The notes beneath the pieces were generated by a model, which saw only the letters and a program-made list of their open reading frames with translations, was not told the origin of the DNA and did not search any database. From NCBI GenBank assembly GCA_964016885.1, contig OZ024741.1, positions 15,872,001-15,936,000 of the forward strand: a stretch of DNA of 64,000 nt. Reading direction: 5' to 3'. This document shows, in pieces, positions 3,536 through 64,000 of this stretch (the stretch's first letter is position 1; each line of letters starts with the position of its first letter). Origin of the DNA: Eledone cirrhosa (lineage: Eukaryota). A program made the position numbers and the translations under genes.

Positions 3536-3596
3536 AAACAACACGTTAAAATCTGTTTCCAAATAATTCGTATATACCATATGTTAATACGATATA

Positions 3597-3785
3597 ATTG
3601 TTTCTACGTTAGGCACAAGACCAGCAATTACCCAGTGTATTACTGGTACTTTATTTTATCGACCCCGTAAGGATGAAAGGCAAAGTTAACCTCGGCGGGA
3701 TTTGAACTCAAAATGGCAAGGGCCGTAACTCTATGCGTCAAAGCATGGCGTCCGACCCTCTCGCAATACTGCCAATCCACCGCAT
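3597..3785 (-). mobile_element. tRNA-derived SINE (family A)
   Basis: Reverse complement has the ggcggtggattggcag head, B-box-like gagttcaaatccc and core actttgcctttcatccttacggggtcgataaaataaagtaccag. Confidence 0.85.
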
Positions 3786-4398: not shown

Positions 4399-9620
<5,222 letters not shown>

Positions 9621-10211
9621 TTTATATAGAAATGGCTTCAATCTTACTTCCACTGTTTCATTCGAAAGAATTGATCATTTCTTCGAATGAAATTATTCTA
9701 GTCCTCTAGAAGCTATTTCTATATTAAATGTTGTATATGCTCTACTAATGTATTGAGTGCCTTACTTACTGGGATTACCCTCGATTGACCCCGGGACTCA
9801 TATATATATATATAAGCCATACTCTGCAATTTGTTTTCTCGGGCTGTGCTAATACTTCGCTATGTAATGTTAGGTGTTTGCTTATATTTTAATCTTAAAC
9901 AACCACATCTGGCTGTAAAAGATGTGTTAAACCACATAGTTCTTATGTCATATAGTCCAGGAAAACAACTACTGATGCTGACTTTTCACTACTTATACAC
10001 ATTCTACATCGGTAATCTACAGATATTCTTTTATTCTTTTATTCTTTTACATTTTCACTGTTTTCAATCATTATTGCTTGTAATCAATTAGTCGATTATA
10101 TCGATCACATAAATGATTTTATCGATATCTTCTGATCGAACCGAGATATTCTACGACGTAAACGCAAGCACACACATACATGCCTCCTTCACTGTATTTG
10201 TCACCAAAACT

Positions 10212-11351: not shown

Positions 11352-11925
11352 ATATATATATATATGTGTGTGTGTGTATGTGTGTGTGTGTATGTGTGTG
11401 TGTTTGTGTGTATGTATTGCTCTGATATGCAATAAAAAGATGATACACTGAAGTATTCTTTGTTTACCCACACGAAGTCGTCTTCCTCACCGTTTAACGT
11501 ATGTATACACTCTAATCAGTTGAGTTCGAATTCTAATAATTCCTAACTTAATTAAATTATTTAGTGAGTGAGGAAATGACAGAAGATGTGGCAATTCTAT
11601 TTGATAAACTTCGTTCTATATTACAAAATTAAATTAAGGGAGTCATGTCCGAGACATGCGCCATATCCACTGTAGAATAAGCTCAAAGATTCCAACGAAT
11701 AGGTCCGAGCATTTTATATCAACTAGAAATTGATTGACATATATATATATCTAAAATAAATACATGAATTAAAAGGGGATTAAAAGGTATCTATATTTGA
11801 ATTTCTAGTTAAACCTTAATTAGTTACCTACCTAGCTGTGTATGCTTTCACACTTTACAAATTATCCCCTGTGATTGTTTCATGTGTTTATTTTAGATAT
11901 ATATACATGTCAATCAATTTCTAGT

Positions 11926-12019
<94 letters not shown>

Positions 12020-13834: not shown

Positions 13835-13965
13835 TTACGGCCCTTTATGGTCTGAGTTCAAATCCCGCCGAGGTTAACTTTTCCTTTCATCCTTACGGGT
13901 CGATTAAATAAGTACCAGTAATACACTTGGATAATTGCTGGCCTTGTGCCAAAAGTAGAAACAAT
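13835..13965 (+). mobile_element. tRNA-derived SINE (family A), partial
   Basis: tctgagttcaaatcccgccgaggttaacttttcctttcatcc..gtaccag..gtagaaac. Confidence 0.8.
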
Positions 13966-14013
13966 TATTCTTGGTTATTTCCAAAATGATTTGAAACTTA
14001 TAACCAATGTCTT

Positions 14014-16799: not shown

Positions 16800-16968
16800 T
16801 CGGTAGAGGGTCGGACAACATGCTTTGCAGCACAGAGTTACGCCCCTTTCTGATCTGAGTTCAAATCCTGCCGAGGTTAACTTTGCCTTTCATCCTTACG
16901 GGGTCGATAAAATAAAGTACCAGTAATGTACTGGGATAATTGCTGGCCTTGTGCCAAAAGTAGAAACA
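16800..16968 (+). mobile_element. tRNA-derived SINE (family A)
   Basis: Matches 35186-35369. Confidence 0.85.
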
Positions 16969-16989
16969 GCTATATTATATATAATTGTT

Positions 16990-17689: not shown

Positions 17690-17865
17690 TTGGCAGTATC
17701 GGTAGAGGGTTGGGCGCCATACTTTCTAGCATAGTTACGTCCCTTTACGGTCTGAGTTCAAATCCCGTCGAGGTTAACTTTGCCTTTCATCCTTACGGGG
17801 TCGATAAAATAAAGTACCAGTAATGTACTGGGATAATTGTTGGCCTTGCGCCAAAAGTAGAAATA
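17690..17865 (+). mobile_element. tRNA-derived SINE (family A)
   Basis: Matches 35186-35369. Confidence 0.85.
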
Positions 17866-20796: not shown

Positions 20797-20800
20797 ATAT

Positions 20801-21232
20801 TATTCAAAATATTAATAAATGAATACGTTCACATAATCAAAATATATGTTTTATTATATATATTTCGGAGGTACTGTGTTGTTTTTTCACTACGCCCTCA
20901 TCAGATAAATATATTAATTGATGTATGACATACCTCAACTATCTTGATGATTCTATTCTAGTATTGGTAGTCAATACTGGAATTGAACCATCAAGACAGT
21001 TGAGGTATGTCATACATCAATTCATATATTTTATCTGATGAAGGCGTACTGAAAAACAGTACAGTACCTCCGAAATATATATAATAAAACATATATTTTG
21101 ATTATGTGAACGTATTCATTTATTAATATTTTGAATAAAATTACTAACTCCAGAAAACTTCCTTGTAGAGTGCTTTTAATCTATTGTAAAACTATATTCA
21201 TTGAGTAATCAATGAATCATATTAATCTTTGG

Positions 21233-21234
<2 letters not shown>
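20801..21234 (+). mobile_element. Palindromic PLE-terminus insert (arms 20801-21137) with HHR on both strands and a 3' tail
   Basis: Plus HHR 21029-21089: TTTTAT-CTGATGA-AGGCGTACTG..CAGTACCTC-C-GAAA-TATATA-TA-ATAAAA. Mirror copy at ~20849-20909. Flanked by TA/TG repeats. Confidence 0.85.
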
Positions 21235-24744: not shown

Positions 24745-27700
24745 ATCGTGAAAGGGTAGAGTTGTTACCTTTACAGGGGAGGTAGGACTGTGAAAGTGTA
24801 GAGTTGTTACTATTACAGGAGAGGTAGGACTGTAAAAGGGTAGAGGGGTTGCCATTATAGGGGAGGTAGGACTGTGAAAGAGTAGAGCTATTACCTTTAC
24901 AGGAATAGTAGGACTGTGAAAGAGTAGAGCTGTTACCTTTACAGGGGAGGTAGGACTGTTAAAGAGTAGAGCTGTTACCTTTACAGGGGAGGTAGGACTG
25001 TGAAAGGGCAGAGATGTAACCTTTACAGGGAAGATAGGACTGTGAAAGAGTAGAGATGTTACCTTTACAGGGGAGGTAGGACTGTGAAATGGTAGAGATG
25101 TTACCTTTTCAAGGGAGGTAGGACTGTGAAGGGGTAGAGGTGTTACCTTTATAGGGGAGGTAGGACTGTGAAAGGGTAGAGATGTTACCTTTACAGGAGA
25201 GGTAAGAATGTGAAATGGTAGAGCTGTTACCTTTACTGGGCAGGTAGGACTGTGAGAGGGTAGAGATGTTACCTTTACAGTGGAGGTAGGACTGTGAAAT
25301 GGTAGAGATGTTACCTTTTCAAGGGAGGTAGGACTGTGAAAGGGTAGAGATGTTACCTTTACAGGGGAGGTAGGACTGTGAAATGGTAGAGATGTTACCT
25401 TTTCAAGGGAGGTAGGACTGTGAAGGGGTAGAGGTGTTAACTTTACTGGGCAGGTAGAACTGTGAAAGGGTAGAGATATTACCTTTACAGGGGAGGTAGG
25501 ACTGTGAAAGGGTAGAGATGTTACCTTTACAGGGGAGGTAGGACTGTGGATGGGTAGAGATGTTACCTTTACAAGGGAGGTAGGGCTGTTTAAGGGTAGA
25601 GATGTTACCTTTATAGGGGAGGTAGGACTGTGAAATGGTAGAGCTGTTACCTTTACGGGGGAGGTAGGACTGTGAAAGGGTAGAGCTGTAACTTTTACAT
25701 GGAAGGTAGGACTGTGAAAGGGTAGAGCTGTTACCTTTACAGGGGAGGTAGGACTGTGAAAGGGTGGAGATGTTACCTTTACAGGGGACTAGGACTGTGA
25801 AGGGGTAGAGATGTTAACTTTATAGGGGAGGTAGGACTGTGAAAAGGGTAGAGATGTTACCTTTATAGGGGAGGTAGGACTGTGAAAGGGTGGAGATGTT
25901 ACCTTTACAGGGGAGGTAGGACTGTGAAGGGGTAGAGATGTTCCATTTACAGGGGAGGTAGGACTGTGAAAGGGTATAGATGTTACATTTACAGGGGAGG
26001 TAGGACTGTGAAAGGGTAGAGATGTTACCTTTACAGGGGAGGTGAAATTGTGAAAGGGTAGAGATGTTACCTTTACAGGGGAGGTAGGAATGTGAAAGGG
26101 TATAGATGTTACATTTACAGGGGTGGTAGGACTGTGAAAGGGTAGAGATGTTACCTTTACAGGGGAGGTGAAATTGTGAAAGGGTAGAGATGTTACCTTT
26201 ACAGGGGAGGTAGGAATGTGAAAGGGTAGAGATGTTACCTTTATAGGGGAGGTAGGACTGTGAAAAGGGTAGAGATGTTACCTTTACAGGGGAGGTAGGA
26301 CTGTGAAATGGTAGAGATGTTACCTTTATAGGGGAGGTAGGACTGTGAAAAGGGTAGAGATGTTACATTTACAGGGAAGGTAGGACTGTGAAATGGTAGA
26401 GATGTTACCTTTATAGGGGAGGTAGGACTGTGAAAGGGTAGAGATGTTACCTTTACAGGGGAGGTAGGACTGTGAAAGAGTAGAGATGTTACCTTTATAA
26501 GGGAGGTAGGAGTGTGAAAGGGTAGAGCTATTACTTTTACAGGGGAGGTAGGACTGTGAAAAGGTAGAGATGTTACTTTTATAGGGAGGTAGGACTGTGA
26601 AAGGGTAGAGCTGTTACCTTTACAGGGGAGGTAGGACTGTGAAAGGGTAGAGATGTTACATTTACAGGGGAGGTAGGACTGTGAAAGGGTAGAGATGTTA
26701 CCTTTACAGGGGAGGTAGGACTGTGAAAGGGTAGAGATGTTACCTTTACAGGGGAGGTTGGACTGTGAAAGGGTAGAGATGTTACCTTTATAGGGGAGGT
26801 AGGAATGTGAAAGGGTAGAGATGTTACGTTTACAGGGGAGGTAGGACTGTGAAATGGTAGAGATGTTACCCCTTTCACAGTCCTACCTCCCCTTTGCAGG
26901 GGAGGTAGGACTGTGAAAGTGTAGAGATGTTACCTTTATAAGGGAGGTAGGAGTGTGAAAGGGTAGAGCTGTTACTTTTACAGGGGAGGTAGGACTGTGA
27001 AAGGGTAGAGATGTTACCTTTGCAGGGGAGGTAGGACTGTTAAAGGGTAGAGATGTTACCTTTACAGGGGAGGTAGGACTGTTAAAGGGTAGAGACGTTA
27101 CCTTTACAGGGGAGGTACGAATGTGAAAGGGTAGAGATGTTACCTTTAAAGGGGAGGTAGGACTGTGAAAGGGTAGAGATGTTAACTTTATAGGGGAGGT
27201 AGGACTGTGAAAGGGAAGAGATGTTACCTTTATAGGGGAGGTAGGACTGTGAAGGGGTAGAGATGTTACCTTTACAGGGGAGGTAGGACTGTGAAAGGGT
27301 AGAGATGTTACCTTTACTGGGGAGGTAGGAGTGTGAAATGGTAGAGTTGTTACCTTTATAGGAGAGGTAGGACTGTGAAAGGGTAGAGATGTTACCTTTA
27401 TAGGGGAGGTAGAACTGTGAAAAGGTAGAGATGTTACCTTTATAAGGAGGTAGGACTGTAAAGGGTAGAGATGTTACCTTTAAAGGGGAGGTAGGACTGT
27501 GAAAAGGTAGAGATGTTACCTTTATAGGGAGGTAGGACTGTGATAGGGTAGAGCTGTTATCTTTACAGGGGAGGTAGGACTGTGAATGGGTAGAGATGTT
27601 ACCTTTGCAGGAGAGGTAGGACTGTGAAAGGGTAGAGATGTTACCTTTATAGGGGAGGTAGGACTGTGAAAGGGTAGAGATGTTAACTTTATAGGGGAGG

Positions 27701-29879
27701 TAGGACTGTGAAAGGGAAGAGATGTTACCTTTATAGGGGAGGTAGGACTGTCAAACGGTAGAGATGTTACCTTTACAGGGGAGGTAGGACTGTTAAAGGG
27801 TAGAGATGTTACCTTTACAGGGGAGGTAGGACTGTGAAAGGGTAGAGATGTTACCTTTACTGGGGAGGTAGGACTGTGAAATGGTAGAGTTGTTACCTTT
27901 ATAGGAGAGGTAGGACTGTGAAAGGGTAGATATGTTACCTTTATAGGGGAGGTATAACTGTGAAAGGGTAGAGATGTTACCTTTACAGGGAAGGTAGGAC
28001 TGTGAAAGTGTAGAGATGTTACCTTTACAGGAGAGGTAGGAGTGTGAAAGGGTACAGATGTTACCTTTACAGGGGAGGTAGGACTGTGAAAGAGTTGAGA
28101 TGTTACCTTTATAAGGGAGGTAGGAGCGTGAAAGGGTAGAGATGTTACTTTTACAGAGGAGGTAGGACTGTGGAAGGGTAGAGATGTTACCTTTACAGGG
28201 GAGGTAGGCCTGATATGGTACAGATGTTACCTTTCTAAGGGAGGTAGGAGTGTGAAAGGGTAGAGATGTTACCTTTACAGGGGAGGTAGGACTGTGAAGG
28301 GGTAGAGATGTTACCTTTACAGGGGAGGTAGGACTGTGAAAAGGTAGAGATGTTACCTTTATAGGGGAAGTAAGATTGTGAAAGGGTAGAGATGTTACCT
28401 TTACAGGGGAGGTAGGACTGTGAAAGGGTAGAGATGTTACCTTTACAGGGGAGGTAGGACTGTGAAAAGGTAGAGATGTTACCTTTATAGGGGAAGTAAG
28501 ATTGTGAAAGGGTAGAGATGTTACCTTTACATGGGAGGTAAGACTGTGAACGGGTAGAGATGTTACCTTTACAGGAGAGGTAGGACTGTGAAAGGGTAGA
28601 GATGTTATCTTTATAGGGAGGTAGGACTGTGAAAGGGTAGAGATGTTACCTTTATAGGGGAGGTAGGACTGTGGAAGGGTAGAGATGTTACCTTTACAGG
28701 GGAGGTAGGACTGTGAAAGGGTAGAGATGTTACCTTTATAGGGAGGTAGGACTGTGAAAGGGTAGAGATGTTACCTTTATAAGGGAGGTAGGACTGTTGA
28801 AGGGTAGAGATGTTACCTTTACAGGGGAGGTAGGATGTTTAGGGTAGAGATGTTACCTTTACAGGGGAGGTAAGACTGTGAAAGGGTAGAGCTGTTACTT
28901 TTACAGGAGAGGTAGGACTGTGAAAGGGTAGAGATGTTACCTTTTTAAGGGAGGTAGGAGTGTGAAAGGGTAGAGATGTTACCTTTACAGGGGAGGTAGG
29001 ACTGAAATGGTACAGCTGTTACCTTTCTAAGGGAGGTAGGAGTGTGAAAGGGTAGAGATGTTACCTTTACAGGGGAGGTAGGACTGTGAAAGTGTAGAGA
29101 TGTTACCTTTATAGGGGAGGTAGGACTGTGGAAGGGTAGAGATGTTACCTTTACAGGGGAGGTAGGACTGTGAAAGGGTAGAGATGTTACCTTTATAGGG
29201 AGGTAGGACTGTGAAAGGGTAGAGATGTTACCTTTATAGGGGAGGTAGGACTGTTGAAGGGTAGAGATGTTACCTTTACAGGGGAGGTAGGATGTTTAGG
29301 GTAGAGATGTTACCTTTACAGGGGAGGTAAGACTGTGAAAGGGTAGAGCTGTTACTTTTACAGGAGAGGTAGGACTGTGAAAGGGTAGAGATGTTACCTT
29401 TCTAAGGGAGGTAGGAGTGTGAAAGGGTAGAGATGTTACCTTTACAGGGGAGGTAGGACTGAAATGGTACAGCTGTTACCTTTCTAAGGGAGGTAGGAGT
29501 GTGAAAGGGTAGAGATGTTACCTTTACAGGGGAGGTAGGACTGTGAAAGGATAGAGATGTTACCTTTATAGGGAGGTAGGACTGTGAAAGCGTAGAGATG
29601 TTACCTTTATAGGGGAGGTAGGACTGTGGAAGGGTAGAGATGTTACCTTTACAGGGGAAGTAGGTCTGTTTAAGGGTAGAGATGTTACCTTTACAGGGGA
29701 GGTAGGACCGTGAAAGGGTAGAACTGTTACCTTTATAGGGGAGGTAGGACTGTGAAAAGGTAGAGATGTTACCTTTACAGGGGAGGTAGGACTGTGAAAA
29801 GGTAGAGATGTTACCTTTACAGGCGAGGTAGGACTGTGAAAGGGTAGAGATGTTACCTTTAGAAGGGAGGTAGGACTGC
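24745..29879. repeat. 42-bp G-rich minisatellite/satellite, ~120 units
   Basis: Consensus GGGGAGGTAGGACTGTGAAAGGGTAGAGATGTTACCTTTACA with substitutions and 1-2 bp indels. Confidence 0.97.
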
Positions 29880-31059: not shown

Positions 31060-31750
31060 TAATATAATATAATATAACATAATATAATATAACATAATAT
31101 AATTGTTTCTATTTTAGGCACAAGGCCAGCAATTAACCAGTACATTACTGGTACTTTATTTTATCGAATCCGTAAGGATGAAAGGCAAAATTAACCTTGG
31201 CAGGATTTGAACTCAGACTGTAAAGGGACGTAACTATGCTAGAAAGCATGGCGTCCAACCCTCTACCGATACTGCCAATCCACCATAATATAATATAATA
31301 TAATATAATATAATATAATATAATATATTATAATATAATATAATATAATTGTTTCTACTTTTTGGCACAAGGCCAGCAATTACCCAGTATATTACTGGTA
31401 CTTTATTTTATCGACCTCGTAAGGATGAAAGGCAAAGTTAACCTCGGCGGGATTTGAACTCAGATCGTAAAGGGACGTAACTATGCTAGAAAGCATGTCT
31501 GACCCTCTACCGATACTGCCAATTCACCTATAATATAATATAATATAATATAATATAATATAATATAATATAATATAATATAATATAATATAATATAATA
31601 TAATATAATATAATATAATATAATATAATATAATATAATATAATATAATATAATATAATATAATATAATATAATATAATATAATATAATATAATATAATA
31701 TAATATAATATAATATAATGTGATATAATATAATATGATATATAATATAA
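31060..31750 (-). mobile_element. Two family A SINEs in tandem (31102-31285, 31349-31529) within an (ATATA)n tract
   Basis: Both match the reverse complement of 35186-35369 and are separated and flanked by taata repeats. Confidence 0.85.
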
Positions 31751-32854
31751 CCTGACGAAATAGAAGAGTCGTTAGAGCACCCAACAAAATGCCTTGTGGT
31801 GTTTACGAGTGTCGGTTGTAAAATGAAGGAGATATAAAGAAGAAACCTGTGAAATCTTGCATGACATTAATTTCAACTCTTCTTATTAATAACTGCATTG
31901 TTTTTTTCTATGTTGAAAAATAAACCTCATTTGGTCATTCCATGAGAGTATCTTGGTCAGCCTATGAACTTTCAGCCGATACTCGCATTCCGGCTCTCTG
32001 CATTCTAGATTCAAATCTTGCCGAGGTCAACTTCGCCTTTCATCCTTTCGAAAATAATTACTGGTTAATTAGTGGAATTATTAGAGGGTCGGACAGGATG
32101 CCTTGTGGTATCTGTTTCGACTCTTTAAGTTCCGACTTCAAATTCCACCTCTTATAACCGGCCTCTTCATGGAGGGAAAATGCATCTTTTGGGACCGGTG
32201 TAGGTGTTAACAATTTTCACCCTAATTTCATCTGTAGTTTCCTCTCACGCCATTTCTGACTCCTCTTCCCACAACTTCATTCCAGTTTTCCTCCACCTGG
32301 AGTTCTGGTCAAAACCAGACAAAAAACTGCATCATTAGATATTGTACCTTGCAACATTATAACCTAAATTCTTTACCGTTTAGTCAGAGAAGGAAGCTCA
32401 GCACTCGTAAGCCTTTAATTTTGTAGTTCCTCTATTTCCAGTAGGAGGAAGTGAAGAAATTATTCTCAAACCTGCGATCTTGTCCAAATGGTTGTAACGG
32501 AGAGTATTTTGCCAAAGACACCCATCTAATTCAGAGCTTTGCTTCCAATATTTCTAATGAAAAACAGTACCTATGGTTTTCAAATAATTTTGAAAATAAT
32601 CAAGATTTATATAACTTTCTAATTGCTGTTATTGTCTTTTTGGCAGTACATATACTAAATTTGGAACCATACAGGGAAGATGTGACATTTCAAGACGTTG
32701 CTTCAATATATATATATATATATGCAAAAGTTCTATTTAAAATTGTTGGGATACAACAAGTAAATATTTTTATAACTGATATAAAGCACTCGACAAGTAT
32801 TTGGAGTAGATATACGATATTAATAAATGGAAACTATATTTATTAAACCATATT

Positions 32855-32919
32855 TATTTCATTATACATATTTCAGGGATACCAAATTAAATTATGGTAT
32901 GCCTTCATCAGACAAAATA
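32855..32919 (-). ncRNA. Type I hammerhead ribozyme in the PLE 3' terminus (sense strand)
   Basis: Reverse complement TATTTTGT-CTGATGA-AGGCATACCA..TGGTATCCCT-GAAA-TATGTA-TA-ATGAAATA. Confidence 0.82.
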
Positions 32920-33529
32920 CAATATATAACAGTTTTACAAATAAGCTTTGACGTACCCTTTTAAAATGCTACCATTATTTTTGGAAGCCATCTGGATAGT
33001 GAATTGTTTATATTATTTTAATAAGTCTTAGTGTTAAGGACAATTAGAAAAAGAGGGAGAGAAAGAAAAAAAGACGGAGAGAGAGAAAAAAGAAAAAGAA
33101 AAAAGCGTGGAGAAATATCGGAGAGAGAGAAATGCATGGAGAAAAAAGGAAGAGATAAATAAAGACAGGAGGAAAGAAAGAAAAAAGAAAAAAGGAAGAA
33201 ATAAGAAAAACAGAGGAAAGCAACAGAGATATATCAGACAGATAGAAAGACTCAAGAGAGAGAAATAATATATAGAGAGAGGGGGAGATAATGAAAACTT
33301 TACGTCATGTCATATTAAGTTGAGTTAACAATTTATATGAAATGAATAATAAAAATATAAATATTAATATTCATGAATGGGACATAAATATATAATATGA
33401 GAAATTTAACAGTGTTTAATAATGATTATATGTTTAGTTTAAAAATTGAGATCAATATACTAAAATTTGAGTTTAAGCATCCAAAATGTACACATTGCTA
33501 GAGAAACCACTATCTTACGGCAAAGATAC

Positions 33530-33562
<33 letters not shown>

Positions 33563-34684
33563 CGCACATCCCGAAAACAGAAATTATATCTACTCAAGCC
33601 TACAATATAGACATACAAAACATAAGTGATTTCTCTTAATCACTGCTATACATTCCTTGTGTTATAAAAATCCACAGTATATATACATAAATATATACGA
33701 TTAACATTCATGCCTTCATATATACGATTACCATTCATGCATTTAACATTCTGTTAAAATTATGCATATCTGCAATCAAAACTGGGTGGGTAGGTATGCA
33801 CACACATAACTCTCACCCACACATATACATATACATATATATATATATACACATACACATATGTATAAATAAATATCTGCGTGCGTCTTCACCAATTGTT
33901 AGACCCGCTTCACTCATGTACACATACAGACAGATATACAATCATAAAAACACCTATAACACTTTTATATGCATGTTAATACACACACATACATATTTGT
34001 ATAGAGATAATCAAATATCAATATATTACTAAAGGATTATACTTTGGAAATATAATTATAACAATATAAATTTAAAATACCAAAGGATTATATTTTGGAA
34101 ATACAATTATATCAGTATAGTCTAAAGGACAAACGAATTATAGAAATATCAAAACGTTAAATATCTTTAAAACACTATAGAGTACCTTAAGTTAAAATAA
34201 TGTTTCATATATTTAGTATAGAAATTTATCCTACGTATATTTCAATCAAGATATTGAAAGGGTAGACTTATGAAAATTATGAGAAGCTATCAGAATCAAA
34301 ACAAACCTAATAAAAATAAATAAAAATAAAAATAAAATAAAAATAATAATAAAAATAAAAATTAAAATTAAAATTAAAATTAAAATTAAAATTAAAATAA
34401 AAATAAAAGTTAAATAAATATTATATCAATATAATTTAAAAATTTAAAAATTTAAGAAGTTTAAAAAGTTTAAAAATTTCTACAGATATCCTTATATTTA
34501 GTATAGAAATTTATCTTACGTATATTTTATTTAAGACATTGGAAGTATATACATTTTAGAGTAGTTTATTATATCTATGTTTATATTTAGGAAGAAAATT
34601 TAAAAAGAAAAAGGTGAAGGAATCTAATGATTTATCGACAGGTTTCATATATTAACTAAATTACTTAATTAATTATACTACATT

Positions 34685-35600
34685 TTAAATTTATATTTAT
34701 ATTTAAACGTTGAGTTCAATCTATGTCTGCAGCAACTGAATAAATTATTCCTTAAATTAAGGGAATTTTTGGACTTTAATATAAAGAATATTTCTTCAAT
34801 ACAAAGATCACAATTTTCTGAAGAGGAATTAAAAGGAGTAGCTTATGAAATAATATTCCAAGTCATCGAATATTTAACATTATCTCGTTTTAGGTCCCAT
34901 AGTAGGCTAGATAGCGAAGTGGAAGATTTTTTGTTTGGATCTGTGAAAGAATTTTTATGATTATTGAAGCGAAATTTAAATTCTGTAGAGGTAGAACCGA
35001 CATAGTTAAATGAATTTAAATTAGTTTTAACATTACAATTGTACACTACATTTTTAGCTAAGCAGTTGTTATTTAACGGACAGTTAGATTTATTTCTACA
35101 GTTACAGTTATTCAATTGAATATTGCTTGGGTTATTATTGGTATTTTGGTTAGGTTTTAAGTTTCTATTATTAATTCTATTAATAGGGCGGTGGATTGGC
35201 AGTATCGGTAGAGGGTCGGACGCCATGCTTTCCAGCATAGTTACGTCCCTTTACCATCTGAGTTCAAATCCCGCCGAGGTTGACTTTGCCTTTCATCCTT
35301 ACGGGGTCGATAAAATAAAGTACCAGTAATGCACTGGTAATTGCTGGCCTTGTGCCTAAAGTAGAAACAATTATTAATTCTATTAATATTTTGTGTTAAA
35401 TTGTTGGTGGACGAGTAAGTTAATTTTATAGTATGTCTATTAAAAATTGAGTAATATTTATGTATTCTAGGGAAGCGTTTGTCAAGAGCTTTAAAGAATA
35501 GTTTAGCAATAGGGGTTTTAATATTTAGTGAGAAAGGGGGAGCAAACCATAATATATTTCTAGTTCTATTTCTTTTTCGGCTTTTGGAATTATTGTAATG
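34685..35600 (-). pseudogene. PLE linker plus GIY-YIG endonuclease, SINE-interrupted, one in-frame stop
   Basis: RTRNILWFAPPFSLNIKT..FPRIHKYYSIFNRHTIKLTYS | SINE | CNCRNKSNCPLNNNC..VVY..YVGST..FKFRFNNH..LWDLK..W..*..CDLCIEE..LNLR..CCRH. Confidence 0.9.
35186..35369 (+). mobile_element. Full-length family A SINE with 19-bp target-site duplication
   Basis: TSD ATTATTAATTCTATTAATA at 35167-35185 and 35370-35388. A/B-box-like head. Confidence 0.92.
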
Positions 35601-35915
35601 TTTTCTATTATAGTTGTTAAAGTTGTTACCATAATTAAAATTGTTATTATTTTGGTTAGTTTGCTTATTATTATTATTATCGATGTATTTAATTTTATTT
35701 CTATATCCAACTCTACCTAACGCTTCGTTGTAATACTGCGCTTTTTCATCAAATATATATTCTTTTTTTCTCTCCGTCTTTTTCTAATTGTCCTTAACAC
35801 TAAGACTTATTAAAATAATATAAACAATTCACTATCCAGATGGCTTCCAAAAATAATAGTCGCATTTTAAAAGGGTACGTCAAACAAAGCTTATTTGTAA
35901 AACTGTTATATATTG

Positions 35916-35980
35916 TATTTTGTCTGATGAAGGCATACCATAATTTAATTTGGTATCCCTGAAATATGTATAATGAAATA
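35916..35980 (+). ncRNA. Hammerhead ribozyme in the inverted PLE terminal copy
   Basis: Mirror of 32855-32919. Confidence 0.82.
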
Positions 35981-36019
35981 AATATGGTTTTATAAATATA
36001 GTTTCCATTTATTAATATC

Positions 36020-36072
<53 letters not shown>

Positions 36073-36078
<6 letters not shown>

Positions 36079-36386
36079 TGTAATAAACAACATAAGGCAA
36101 TTATTACATTTACCAGTGGTTTCTTAAAAGCAAACAAATTTTGCTTTCAATCATCAGAATGAAAAAATCCTGGTGTATTTATTGACATAGGTTTTTAAAA
36201 ACCTATGTCAATAAATACACCAGGATTTTTTCATTCTGACGATTGAAAGCAAACTTTGTTTTCTTTTAAGAAACCACTGGTAAATGAAATAATTGCCTTA
36301 TGTTGTTTATTACATAACTATTAAGCTCTGTTACCTGCATAGAGCACTCTTTTTTCCTGGACCTTTCCGATAGAATTACTTCATTT
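36073..36386 (+). mobile_element. Palindromic insert (arms 36073-36320, no spacer) with HHR on both strands and a tail
   Basis: HHR 36229-36289: TTTCATT-CTGACGA-TTGAAAG..CTTTTAA-GAAA-CCACTGG-TA-AATGAAA. (TA)n flanks. Confidence 0.85.
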
Positions 36387-36526
<140 letters not shown>

Positions 36527-37184: not shown

Positions 37185-37346
37185 TGGGTTTTCAGAATCG
37201 GTAGAGCCCCAGATAAACTACCATTATGGTATTTTTCTGGCATTATACATTCTGAGTTCAAATCTCACCAAGGTTAACTCTGCCTTTCATCTTTATGATG
37301 TCAATAAAATAAAGTACCAGTAATGTACTGGGGTTGATTTAATCGA
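37185..37346 (+). mobile_element. Older family A-like SINE
   Basis: ctgagttcaaatc..aggttaactctgcctttcatc..aaataaagtaccag. Confidence 0.75.
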
Positions 37347-38487: not shown

Positions 38488-38597
38488 AAAAGAGTCGGGG
38501 CCCGACGGCTGAGCTCTTGCCGTTTACACCACTAGTTCTTACAGGAACTGGTTGTTGAAACGGCAAGACCTCAGCCGTCGGGCCCTGACTCTTTATA
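38488..38597. repeat. Palindrome containing an HHR 3' half
   Basis: GAAA-CGGC(aagacctca)GCCG-TC-GGGCCC, mirrored. Confidence 0.75.
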
Positions 38598-41839: not shown

Positions 41840-42001
41840 GAAAAAATATGACCCCGACGGCAGAGCTCAAGCCGTTTCGTCGAAACGGCTTGAGCTCTGC
41901 CGTCGGGGTTATACTTTTTCCTATTTCCCACTCTACTACCCTAAGTATTGAGTACTCTGGTGCGTTATGCTCCATCTGGTTCCTTACCACACTTCCTTTG
42001 T

Positions 42002-42804: not shown

Positions 42805-42994
42805 TTATTTTATAGAAGGAGCTTCTACAGGACTAGTACTGTTTCATTCAGATGAAAGCTTCCTGAAGATTTCATCTGAATGAAACAGTACTAGTCCTGT
42901 AGAAGCTCCTTCTATAAAATAAAAAAATTTTACTCTGCCATGTATTGAGTACCTTACTTACTGTGGTTATCCCCGACTCAACCCGGGACCTACG
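42800..42994 (+). mobile_element. Palindromic insert (arms 42800-42927) with HHR-like core and tail
   Basis: CTGAAGA(42863)-TTTCATCTGAAT-GAAA-CAGTACTAG-TC. The tail gtattgagtaccttacttactgtggtta recurs at ~9750, 42100-42170 (minus) and 45655-45715. Confidence 0.75.
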
Positions 42995-43019: not shown

Positions 43020-43439
43020 AAATGTAGGAGGTGAGTTTTATTGTAGTACAATAAAGCAATGCAGATATCGGATAAGAAGCACTCTACAGTTTGTGGGACT
43101 GGAGTATGCATAATATAAGATCAAAAGATGGTTAAAGGAGTTCAATATATTTTATTATGCGCATTTCAAAAACAAACATCATCAAACAATAATATTTGTG
43201 TTTTCATCAGATAAAACAGGAGAACATGATATGAAGGCTAAAAAAACACTTGTTGATAGTGCAGTTTTAAATCAACATATGTTGATTTAAAACTGCACTA
43301 TCAACAAGTGTTTTTTTAGCCTTCATATCATGCTCTCCTGTTTTATCTGATGAAAACACAAATATTATTGTTTGATGATGTTTGTTTTTGAAATGCGCAT
43401 AATAAAATATATTGAACTCCTTTAACCATCTTTTGATCT

Positions 43440-43941: not shown

Positions 43942-44685
<744 letters not shown>

Positions 44686-44688
<3 letters not shown>

Positions 44689-44900
44689 TATACAATGATA
44701 TTAAATAAATGGAAACTATATTTATAAAACCATATTTATTTTATATATTTATTTTAAATATGGTTTTATAAATATAGTTTCCATTTATTTAATATCATTG
44801 AATATTTACTCCAGTAAACTGTTGAGTGCTCTAAATCAGTTATAAACATTTATGTTTGTTGGACTTCCAACAAATTAAATACAACTTCTACTTATATTAC
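44686..44900 (+). mobile_element. Very short palindromic remnant of the 32723-36022 PLE family plus tail
   Basis: aaatatggttttataaatatagtttccatttat and the tail match the reverse complement of 32723-32860. Confidence 0.8.
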
Positions 44901-44910
44901 ATATATATAT

Positions 44911-45031
44911 GATTACGGCCATATCACGCTGAAATCACCGGTTCTCGTCCGATCACCGAAGTTAAGCAACGTAGAGCCTAGTTCGTACTTAGATGGGTGA
45001 CCGCTTGGGGAACCCTAGGTGCTGTAAGCGT
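44911..45031 (+). rRNA. 5S rRNA copy, probably a retro-pseudogene or SINE head
   Basis: GATTACGGCCATATCACGCTGAAA..CTCGTCCGATCACCGAAGTTAAGC..GTACTTAGATGGGTGACCGCTTGGG..GGTGCTGTAAGC, ~120 nt, with terminal helix pairing. Solitary copy. Confidence 0.92.
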
Positions 45032-53999: not shown

Positions 54000-54195
54000 C
54001 GAAGGAAATGTGGTAAGGAACCAGGTGGACCATAACGCACCAAAGTACTCAATGCTTAGGGTAGTGGAGTGGGTAATAGGAACGAGTATGACCCCACGGT
54101 TGAGCTCAAGCCGTTTCGACGGCTAATTCTGGACTTTTTAGTCCAGAATTAGCCGTCGAAACTGCTTGAGCTCAGCCGTCGGGGTCCTACTCGTT

Positions 54196-54200
<5 letters not shown>
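53998..54200 (-). mobile_element. Palindromic insert (arms 54076-54200) of the 41840-42002 family
   Basis: GAAAC(G/T)GCTTGAGCTCA(G/A)CCGT..GGGGTC mirrored around gact-tttt-agtc. Confidence 0.8.
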
Positions 54201-63862: not shown

Positions 63863-64000
63863 ACATATTTACATATTATATAATATATATATAACAAAGA
63901 AGGCGTGGTAAGATACCAGGTGGACCAAAACGCACCAGAGTACTCAATACCTAGGATAGTAGAGTGGGTAATAGTAAAAGAATCAGGACCCCGACGGCTG

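Follow-up and report, generated by a model that had tools for sequence, protein, structure and literature searches.

A 64,000-nt stretch of the Eledone cirrhosa genome (GenBank assembly GCA_964016885.1, contig OZ024741.1, positions 15,872,001 to 15,936,000 of the forward strand; hereafter the window, in which coordinates are counted) contains at 32724-36020 a 5'-truncated Penelope-like element (PLE) lying within a (TA)n tract. The copy is dead and belongs, by its motifs, to the Hydra clade. Comparison of this copy with its family in the host genome and with relatives in other animals inclines us to the reading that Hydra PLEs carry a duplicated RNA element, consisting of two bulged hairpins 55-93 nt apart, which would load two reverse transcriptase (RT)-endonucleases and fix two priming sites. 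We consider it probable, and slightly more so, that two such proteins, loaded on the two hairpins of a single RNA, each start cDNA from a different strand of the (TA)n tract, giving the head-to-head layout with one tail.

The element in the window

The element is flanked on the left by a (TA)n target tract (32706-32723) and on the right by another (36021-36074), and both of its outer ends adjoin (TA)n. The left arm, on the minus strand, ends with a tail of about 85-90 nt (32724-32814) that is present in this arm only, so named where the arm runs past the point at which the right arm meets (TA)n. Within the tail lies hairpin 1 (32786-32807, minus strand; ACTC CAA atac TTG tc GAGT GC), 7 nt beyond the tailless end site. 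The 3' untranslated region (UTR) is long, about 1.9 kb, and rich in simple repeats (32815-34677, minus strand). It includes a type I hammerhead ribozyme motif (32855-32919, minus strand; predicted cut after 32863) made up of CTGATGA, a 9-pair helix II, GAAA, TATGTA and TA, with an 8-pair helix I and a short, near-palindromic helix III, the latter being usual for PLE hammerheads (PMC4209133). A strict hammerhead descriptor matched 9 times in the window, and none of 10 block shuffles contained a match.

Upstream of the UTR on the minus strand, a linker and C-terminal GIY-YIG endonuclease (34678-35185) were read, with the linker motif CNCRNKSNC at 35080-35106, the endonuclease motifs VVY (35041-52), YVG (34993-35004), CDLC (34801-12) and CRH (34720-31), and an in-frame TAA breaking the open reading frame (ORF) remnant at 34843-34845. 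A repeat resembling a short interspersed element (SINE; 35186-35369) was inserted into the ORF later, the insert amounting to 203 nt with a 19-bp target duplication (35167-35185 and 35370-35388). Beyond it the RT thumb, with the WFAPPF region (35389-35758, minus strand), extends to the 5' truncation point at 35758. The head-to-head junction follows (35759-35766; 8 nt exactly assignable to neither arm), and then an inverted, tailless copy of the 3' end on the plus strand (35760-36020) with a second hammerhead at 35916-35980. The two arms, 32807-33071 (minus) and 35760-36028 (plus), match at 258/265 bases and differ by one 4-nt insertion; the ORF remnant (34678-35758, minus strand) is identical to the intact family copy L064 at 910/926 aligned bases. 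The original prediction, which had described an endonuclease remnant with a long 3' UTR, a hammerhead and a tail, capped by an inverted copy of about 260 bp that lacks the tail, is thereby confirmed in its layout and in its assignment to GIY-YIG PLEs. Its description of the remnant as endonuclease was right as far as it went, the RT thumb region being present too.

In the 3.0-Gb host assembly, a 23-mer from the 3' end gave 4,474 exact matches, against 0 for a control, and a protein search returned 150 scored copies at 89-96% identity, the window's own excluded. Full anatomy was read from L064, in which an upstream pseudo-long terminal repeat (pLTR), tail, 47-nt leader, ATG, ORF and tailless 3' UTR end are followed by an inverted arm ending with a tail. 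In the tandem copies (L064, L065, L066, L067, L069, L073, L136 and L008) the tail continues into the leader and ATG, the order after the tail being ATATATTCT, hairpin 2, 47-nt leader and ATG. Upstream pLTR lengths in these copies vary to about 1.65 kb, as would be expected if a circular or multimeric template were copied through more than once. At L074:6628-6710 the ORF passes straight to a tail of the same orientation, the 3' UTR being skipped.

Insertion geometry

A positional sample was formed from the first 100 matches of the 23-mer along contig C1, which fell into 69 clusters. Automatic pairing of ends (67 loci) gave 45 mixed pairs, 1 tail/tail pair and 1 tailless/tailless pair. On curation, pairings were corrected at L075 and L157 and pairs were added at L109, L128 and L145; L143 and L150, which have eroded ends, and one sister-subfamily pair in L129 were excluded. 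Exactly one tailed end was found in 50 of the 51 curated two-ended insertions (p 1e-14 vs free choice of site), or in 52/53 once L359 and L360 were added. Target duplications are unreadable within (TA)n.

Within the family total sizes proved continuous, from 100 to 7,940 bp, and the inversion point was unique to each copy; the spacer is the difference between two truncation points. The truncation series proposed earlier (3.3 kb, 0.4 kb and 0.2 kb) therefore stands within the family and fails for the palindromes of the window, which stem from several families.

The two arms of one insertion were shown to stem from the same source sequence. Arm divergence was 1.4% within insertions vs 3.5% between them, and 0/1000 permutations were as low (45 of 48 pairs usable). 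Common variants occurred in both arms 36 times and in one arm 5 times, and rare variants in both arms 28 times and in one arm 72 times. Strong gene conversion between arms is disfavoured because those 72 rare variants are unshared. With the shared variants and the tail rule, the earlier claim that the inverted arm is not an independent insertion was upheld.

Arm lengths correlate (rho 0.60, n=50). The arm reaching further 5' is the tailless one in 38 insertions (permutation mean 29.6) and the tailed one in 8, the window copy being of the latter type; in 4 the arms are equal. Because the tailless arm reaches further 5' in 38/50, a single folded-back cDNA is excluded as the general route and two priming events are needed. 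Arms do not overlap in 8/50 insertions, and 8 insertions have a tailed arm that falls short of the full tail length. Of 100 arm ends, 17 lie at a near-palindromic site that is 178-196 nt in from the end. Arm ends at the hammerhead cut site, counted by eye, came to about 3/100 and were not used as evidence.

The twin hairpin

The ends map to two fixed sites about 90 nt apart. On a tandem template a short run of TA comes after each site, and 6-10 nt beyond the site lies a copy of the bulged hairpin RCUC-N3-loop-N3-2nt-GAGY, which thus occurs twice in the tandem RNA. In the window family the tail holds one copy and the leader the other, at a distance of 93 nt, and the ends lie 7 nt ahead of hairpin 1 and 9 nt ahead of hairpin 2. 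The DNA pattern RCTC-N3-loop-N3-2nt-GAGY occurs 11 times in the window, mostly at the start of a tail, against a mean of 1.3 and a maximum of 5 in shuffles; this count is circular in that the motif was derived from the tails of window palindromes.

The out-of-sample set was 78 metagenome contigs from other animals, carrying relatives at 32-38% identity. There the strict motif was found in 15/61 3' UTRs (0.3 expected) and 17/46 leaders (0.05 expected); with pairing not required, leaders often held two copies 55-74 nt apart. After the 78 loci had been collapsed to 58 families, two hairpins were present in 25, one in 14 and none in 19. Pairing at the three inner positions, by pairs of several types, holds in 59/64, 39/59 and 25/37 cases, and these levels were matched by 0, 0 and 2 of 5000 shuffles. 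When the bulge was shifted to 1 or 3 the signal was mostly lost, one shifted pair being reached by 14/5000 shuffles. The hairpin thus covaries across Hydra families of other animals. Folding of the whole 3' 318 nt was no better than shuffles (z 0.11), and the structure claim accordingly rests on covariation.

Copies ending in (TA)n (n=12) kept 0 or 1 hairpin (5 and 7 copies), never 2; in three contigs from other animals that hold both an end and a read-through, the end lies 6, 8 and 10 nt before the hairpin; and among 80 hairpins TA peaks at -8 to -6. The pattern was found in sense orientation 105 times vs 8 antisense, and it was not found downstream of CCHH-type PLE ORFs (14/14). Published Hydra-1_Ajap has two hairpin copies ahead of its ATG and Hydra-2_Amil has one at its 3' end; in the printed ends of Hydra-1_Obim the hairpin is not clearly visible. 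Rfam recognised only 5S rRNA in the window and had no match on 4 hairpin-bearing loci.

That PLEs can have inverted copies and one-sided tails was known before. The duplicated hairpin is apparently an unreported cis element: neither it nor the near-strict one-tail count nor the shared-source test turned up in the literature searched, older Penelope work and Repbase reports lying outside that search. The words hairpin and stem-loop had no match in the available text and supplement of Craig et al. 2021 (PMC8557442) or in the available part of a 2026 retrozyme preprint, and the accessible part of a 2026 paper on Octopus vulgaris repeats (PMC13282606) has no mention of Hydra, Naiad or palindromes.

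Proposed mechanism and alternatives

The template would be a tandem or hammerhead-circularised RNA with the order 3' UTR, hammerhead, site N, hairpin 1, site T, hairpin 2, leader and ORF, and one protein would be loaded per hairpin. The endonucleases would nick both strands of the self-complementary (TA)n, and the 3'-OH of each nick would pair with the UA run ahead of its hairpin. The RT starting from T would trail the RT starting from N, and so would usually stop at or before it; it may sometimes be blocked inside the tail, and may sometimes overtake by displacement, as in the window copy. The two cDNA ends would then be joined head to head, often at a short self-complementary site, with host repair filling in.

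Instead of one RNA, two RNAs of one active donor might be held in an asymmetric dimer, the RNA of one subunit at site N and that of the other at site T, which we regard as unlikely. Overlapping arms would then need no strand displacement, sibling RNAs of one donor would share variants too, and total cDNA lengths do split evenly (23 vs 25). However, mixed ends in 52/53 insertions demand an unexplained asymmetry, and neither the correlated arm lengths, the excess of further-reaching tailless arms nor the tailed arms ending inside the tail would be predicted. It is more doubtful still that cDNA has a single start and that the GIY-YIG endonuclease makes the tailless end by cutting element DNA at the TA run beside hairpin 1. 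That internal run resembles the target, Craig et al. propose that tails arise via endonuclease-mediated resolution (PMC8557442), and the Penelope tail is reportedly needed for endonuclease recognition (cited in PMC11167929); but the G-U pairs and fixed one-sided bulge of the hairpin fit a single-stranded RNA, and a second arm reaching further 5' than the first (38/50) still needs a second priming.

There is very little probability that one cDNA snaps back and is copied on itself. Perfect hairpins in 4/50 insertions (1.2 expected), the clustering of 17/100 arm ends at the near-palindromic site 178-196 nt in and the variants shared by the arms would suit such a fold-back, yet the first cDNA must be tailed, so that the tailless arm could never extend further, as it does in 38/50, and in 8/50 the arms do not overlap. 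Fold-back is refuted as a general mechanism and is possible for a minority of copies. Independent back-to-back insertion of two copies at (TA)n hot spots has next to no likelihood: the family is abundant and clusters in (TA)n, but the absence of (TA)n from the junctions, the tail rule and the shared variants refute it.

Several points weigh against priming by two proteins on one RNA. The locus L116 is an exception with both ends tailless, and about 17 anchored ends lack a partner end, some being without any inverted arm (L114), from which it follows that twin priming is not obligatory. The shared variants fit equally one RNA, two sibling RNAs or later gene conversion between arms. Junction microhomology is weak (at least 3 nt in 10/50 vs 32/360 simulated, p 0.02, with 15 junctions unresolved in this count), and in some families the end site shares only 2-3 nt of TA homology. 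Instead of working as RNA, the hairpin might be a DNA site for the endonuclease, and the shuffle controls do not fully model relatedness. Finally, initiation by a Poseidon PLE is reported to be non-homologous to the target (PMC11167929).

Clade assignment

Hydra was defined by a C-terminal GIY-YIG endonuclease without CCHH, the motifs RW[KR], DKT and CxCX5C, and a hammerhead (Craig et al. 2021, PMC8557442). Judged by its motifs, the window family is a Hydra-type PLE with all five Hydra protein features, and a new family of that known clade. A single ORF with the RT followed by a C-terminal GIY-YIG domain is intact in L061-L065 (738-816 aa); the Pfam GIY-YIG match is weak (E 0.024). IRWRAF and SDKT, corresponding to RWK and to the change from DKG to DKT, occur in family copies, the region being truncated away in the window copy. 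The linker CNCRNKSNC has the form CxCX5C. The endonuclease lacks CCHH, as VVYNCNVKTNLNSFNYVG has no cysteine pair, and CxxC and CxH flank its E and N (CDLCIEE...RNNL...CRH). A canonical hammerhead near the 3' end, recognised by its sequence motif, and insertion into (TA)n were also found. Hydra elements are generally under 3 kb; the L064 unit measures 4,149 nt because its 3' UTR is repeat-expanded, and unit size is a descriptive rather than a defining trait.

Among the 94 of 120 listed homologs that exceed 640 aa, RW[KR] is present in 79, CxCX5C in 78, CxxC-E in 87 and CxH in 85. In a quick 27-row tree, a split with SH-aLRT 100 sets the family together with 20 homologs apart from 5 CCHH-type PLE ORFs found in the host genome; the rows of the tree include no named Hydra reference and no Naiad, the family sits among homologs with Hydra motifs, and the tie to named Hydra elements is by motif comparison with the printed supplement of Craig et al. 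One Hydra-type PLE RT is the Argonauta hians protein P0069, which carries the annotation 'GATA zinc finger domain-containing protein 14-like'.

The original prediction had suggested a Naiad-like clade, which proved incorrect. Naiad is defined by an N-terminal endonuclease and no canonical hammerhead (PMC8557442); here the endonuclease is C-terminal, a hammerhead is present, and the CCHH, CX2-5CxxC and DKA motifs are absent. Neptune, Nematis and Penelope-Poseidon were likewise rejected, as their CCHH and DKG, seen in the comparison ORFs L339, L340 and L342, are not found here. A short degenerate motif search of the host genome for a Naiad outgroup gave 2 matches, neither with a readable ORF. 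A Pfam scan of full-length family ORFs matched no RT family, and a PDB sequence search using the family alignment gave no match. Long or intact CCHH-type PLE ORFs, Neptune-like and Penelope-like, occur in the same genome (L339-L354); L344 and L354 are head-to-head ORF duplications, and the inverted layout is therefore common to several clades.

Other palindromes and repeats in the window

Homology of the element to 430-668 and 44686-44900 had been claimed, and it is real: the scores were 174 and 171, against a best of 87 and 92 in 200 shuffles each. Both are diverged sister subfamilies and not the same exact family. The first (about 0.24 kb, plus strand) is a 3' end with a hammerhead at 570-614, tailless on the right and not a clean palindrome; the second (about 0.21 kb, plus strand) is a mini-palindrome with a one-sided tail and hairpin 1 at 44808-44827. 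Directly after the latter and a short TA tract stands a lone 5S rRNA-like sequence (44911-45030; Rfam 98.6 bits).

Palindromes of related families, with hammerheads, lie at 20797-21234 (plus strand; one-sided tail, hairpin at 21147-21171) and 43020-43439 (minus strand; tail on the left, hairpin at 43081-43105). The palindrome at 36075-36392 (plus strand), with hammerheads, a one-sided tail and a hairpin at 36325-36345, is an insertion in its own right, next to the element and of another family. Six more sites, 9619-9729, 38489-38594, 41840-41920, 42812-42915, 54079-54197 and 63894-64000, are short palindromes, or ends, that have a one-sided tail. At most of these six the same hairpin recurs in the tail and a hammerhead is present, whole or as its 3' half; 38489-38594 has no exact hairpin match. 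The view that the short palindromes and the 3.3-kb insertion have one common geometry was borne out. A degenerate palindrome (72%) beside (TA)n at 11720-11927 has no hammerhead or hairpin match.

The copy at 44233-44622 belongs with 18 other loci (L173-L190) to a very young family (99% identical) of palindromes 390 bp long, in which the centre is almost fixed and the tail measures 39 nt. One tail is present at 15 of these loci, two at 1 and none at 1, and the upstream part is non-palindromic at 1 (L177); the window copy has no tail. No hammerhead core was found in this family, its sole hairpin-like match being the palindrome centre, and it is possibly a non-autonomous PLE of another clade.

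The SINE-like family is abundant, with further copies in the window at 3581-3783, 13837-13969, 16800-16985, 17690-17861, 31104-31528 and 37246-37332, and the repeat often sits inside copies of the window PLE family (L003, L023 and L029). A 5-kb array of a 42-bp minisatellite occupies 24748-29878, with an internal inversion near 26870.

Significance and comparison with known systems

The formation of tandem and inverted PLE ends and of tails was stated to be unresolved by Craig et al. 2021 (PMC8557442). If the twin-hairpin reading is true, a single reaction would give the tail, the inverted repeat and thousands of genomic palindromes, and PLE integration would have in the hairpin its first defined cis signal, which would also be a portable tag for directing insertions to (TA)n. 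PLEs are the sister group of telomerase RTs, and the twin hairpin makes an open mechanistic question directly testable. It is a short, mutable sequence that predicts starts 6-10 nt upstream, a tail length set by hairpin spacing and one tail per insertion, and near-intact ORFs of the host genome supply the protein. Hydra elements escape Pfam and Rfam, and the hairpin provides a marker for them at the DNA level. Most short palindromes of the window, which could otherwise be filed as miniature inverted-repeat transposable elements, are explained as PLE ends.

The published Hydra elements (Hydra-1_Obim, Hydra-1_Ajap and Hydra-2_Amil; PMC8557442) share with the window family the single ORF, the C-terminal GIY-YIG without CCHH, RW[KR], DKT, CxCX5C, CxxC and CxH around E and N, the hammerhead, the (TA)n target and pLTR tandems. 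The window family differs from Hydra-1_Obim, as judged by eye against the printed part of that protein, and has a unit of about 4.2 kb with a 1.9-kb 3' UTR vs Hydra 'generally <3 kb', and a tail of about 85-90 nt vs the 30-40 bp given for PLEs (PMC8557442). Naiad has (TA)n targeting, inverted 5'-truncated copies and a one-sided tail in common with the window element, and differs by its N-terminal endonuclease with CCHH, its DKA and its lack of a canonical hammerhead, none of which applies to the window element.

In the Poseidon element PAc of Anolis (Frangieh et al. 2024, PMC11167929), as in the reading proposed here, both target strands are cut and extended in vitro, two internal RT starts bound the tail and a hammerhead lies nearby, which was dispensable in vitro; a dimer was predicted by its authors. 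[quoted passage not shown] At each of its starts the window family, unlike PAc, has a short match to TA as well as a separate copy of the repeated hairpin. In L1 twin priming, two primers on opposite target strands use one RNA and yield a head-to-head inversion, the second primer annealing at variable internal sites and the arms being without overlap. In the window family, in contrast, both sites are fixed and the arms usually overlap.

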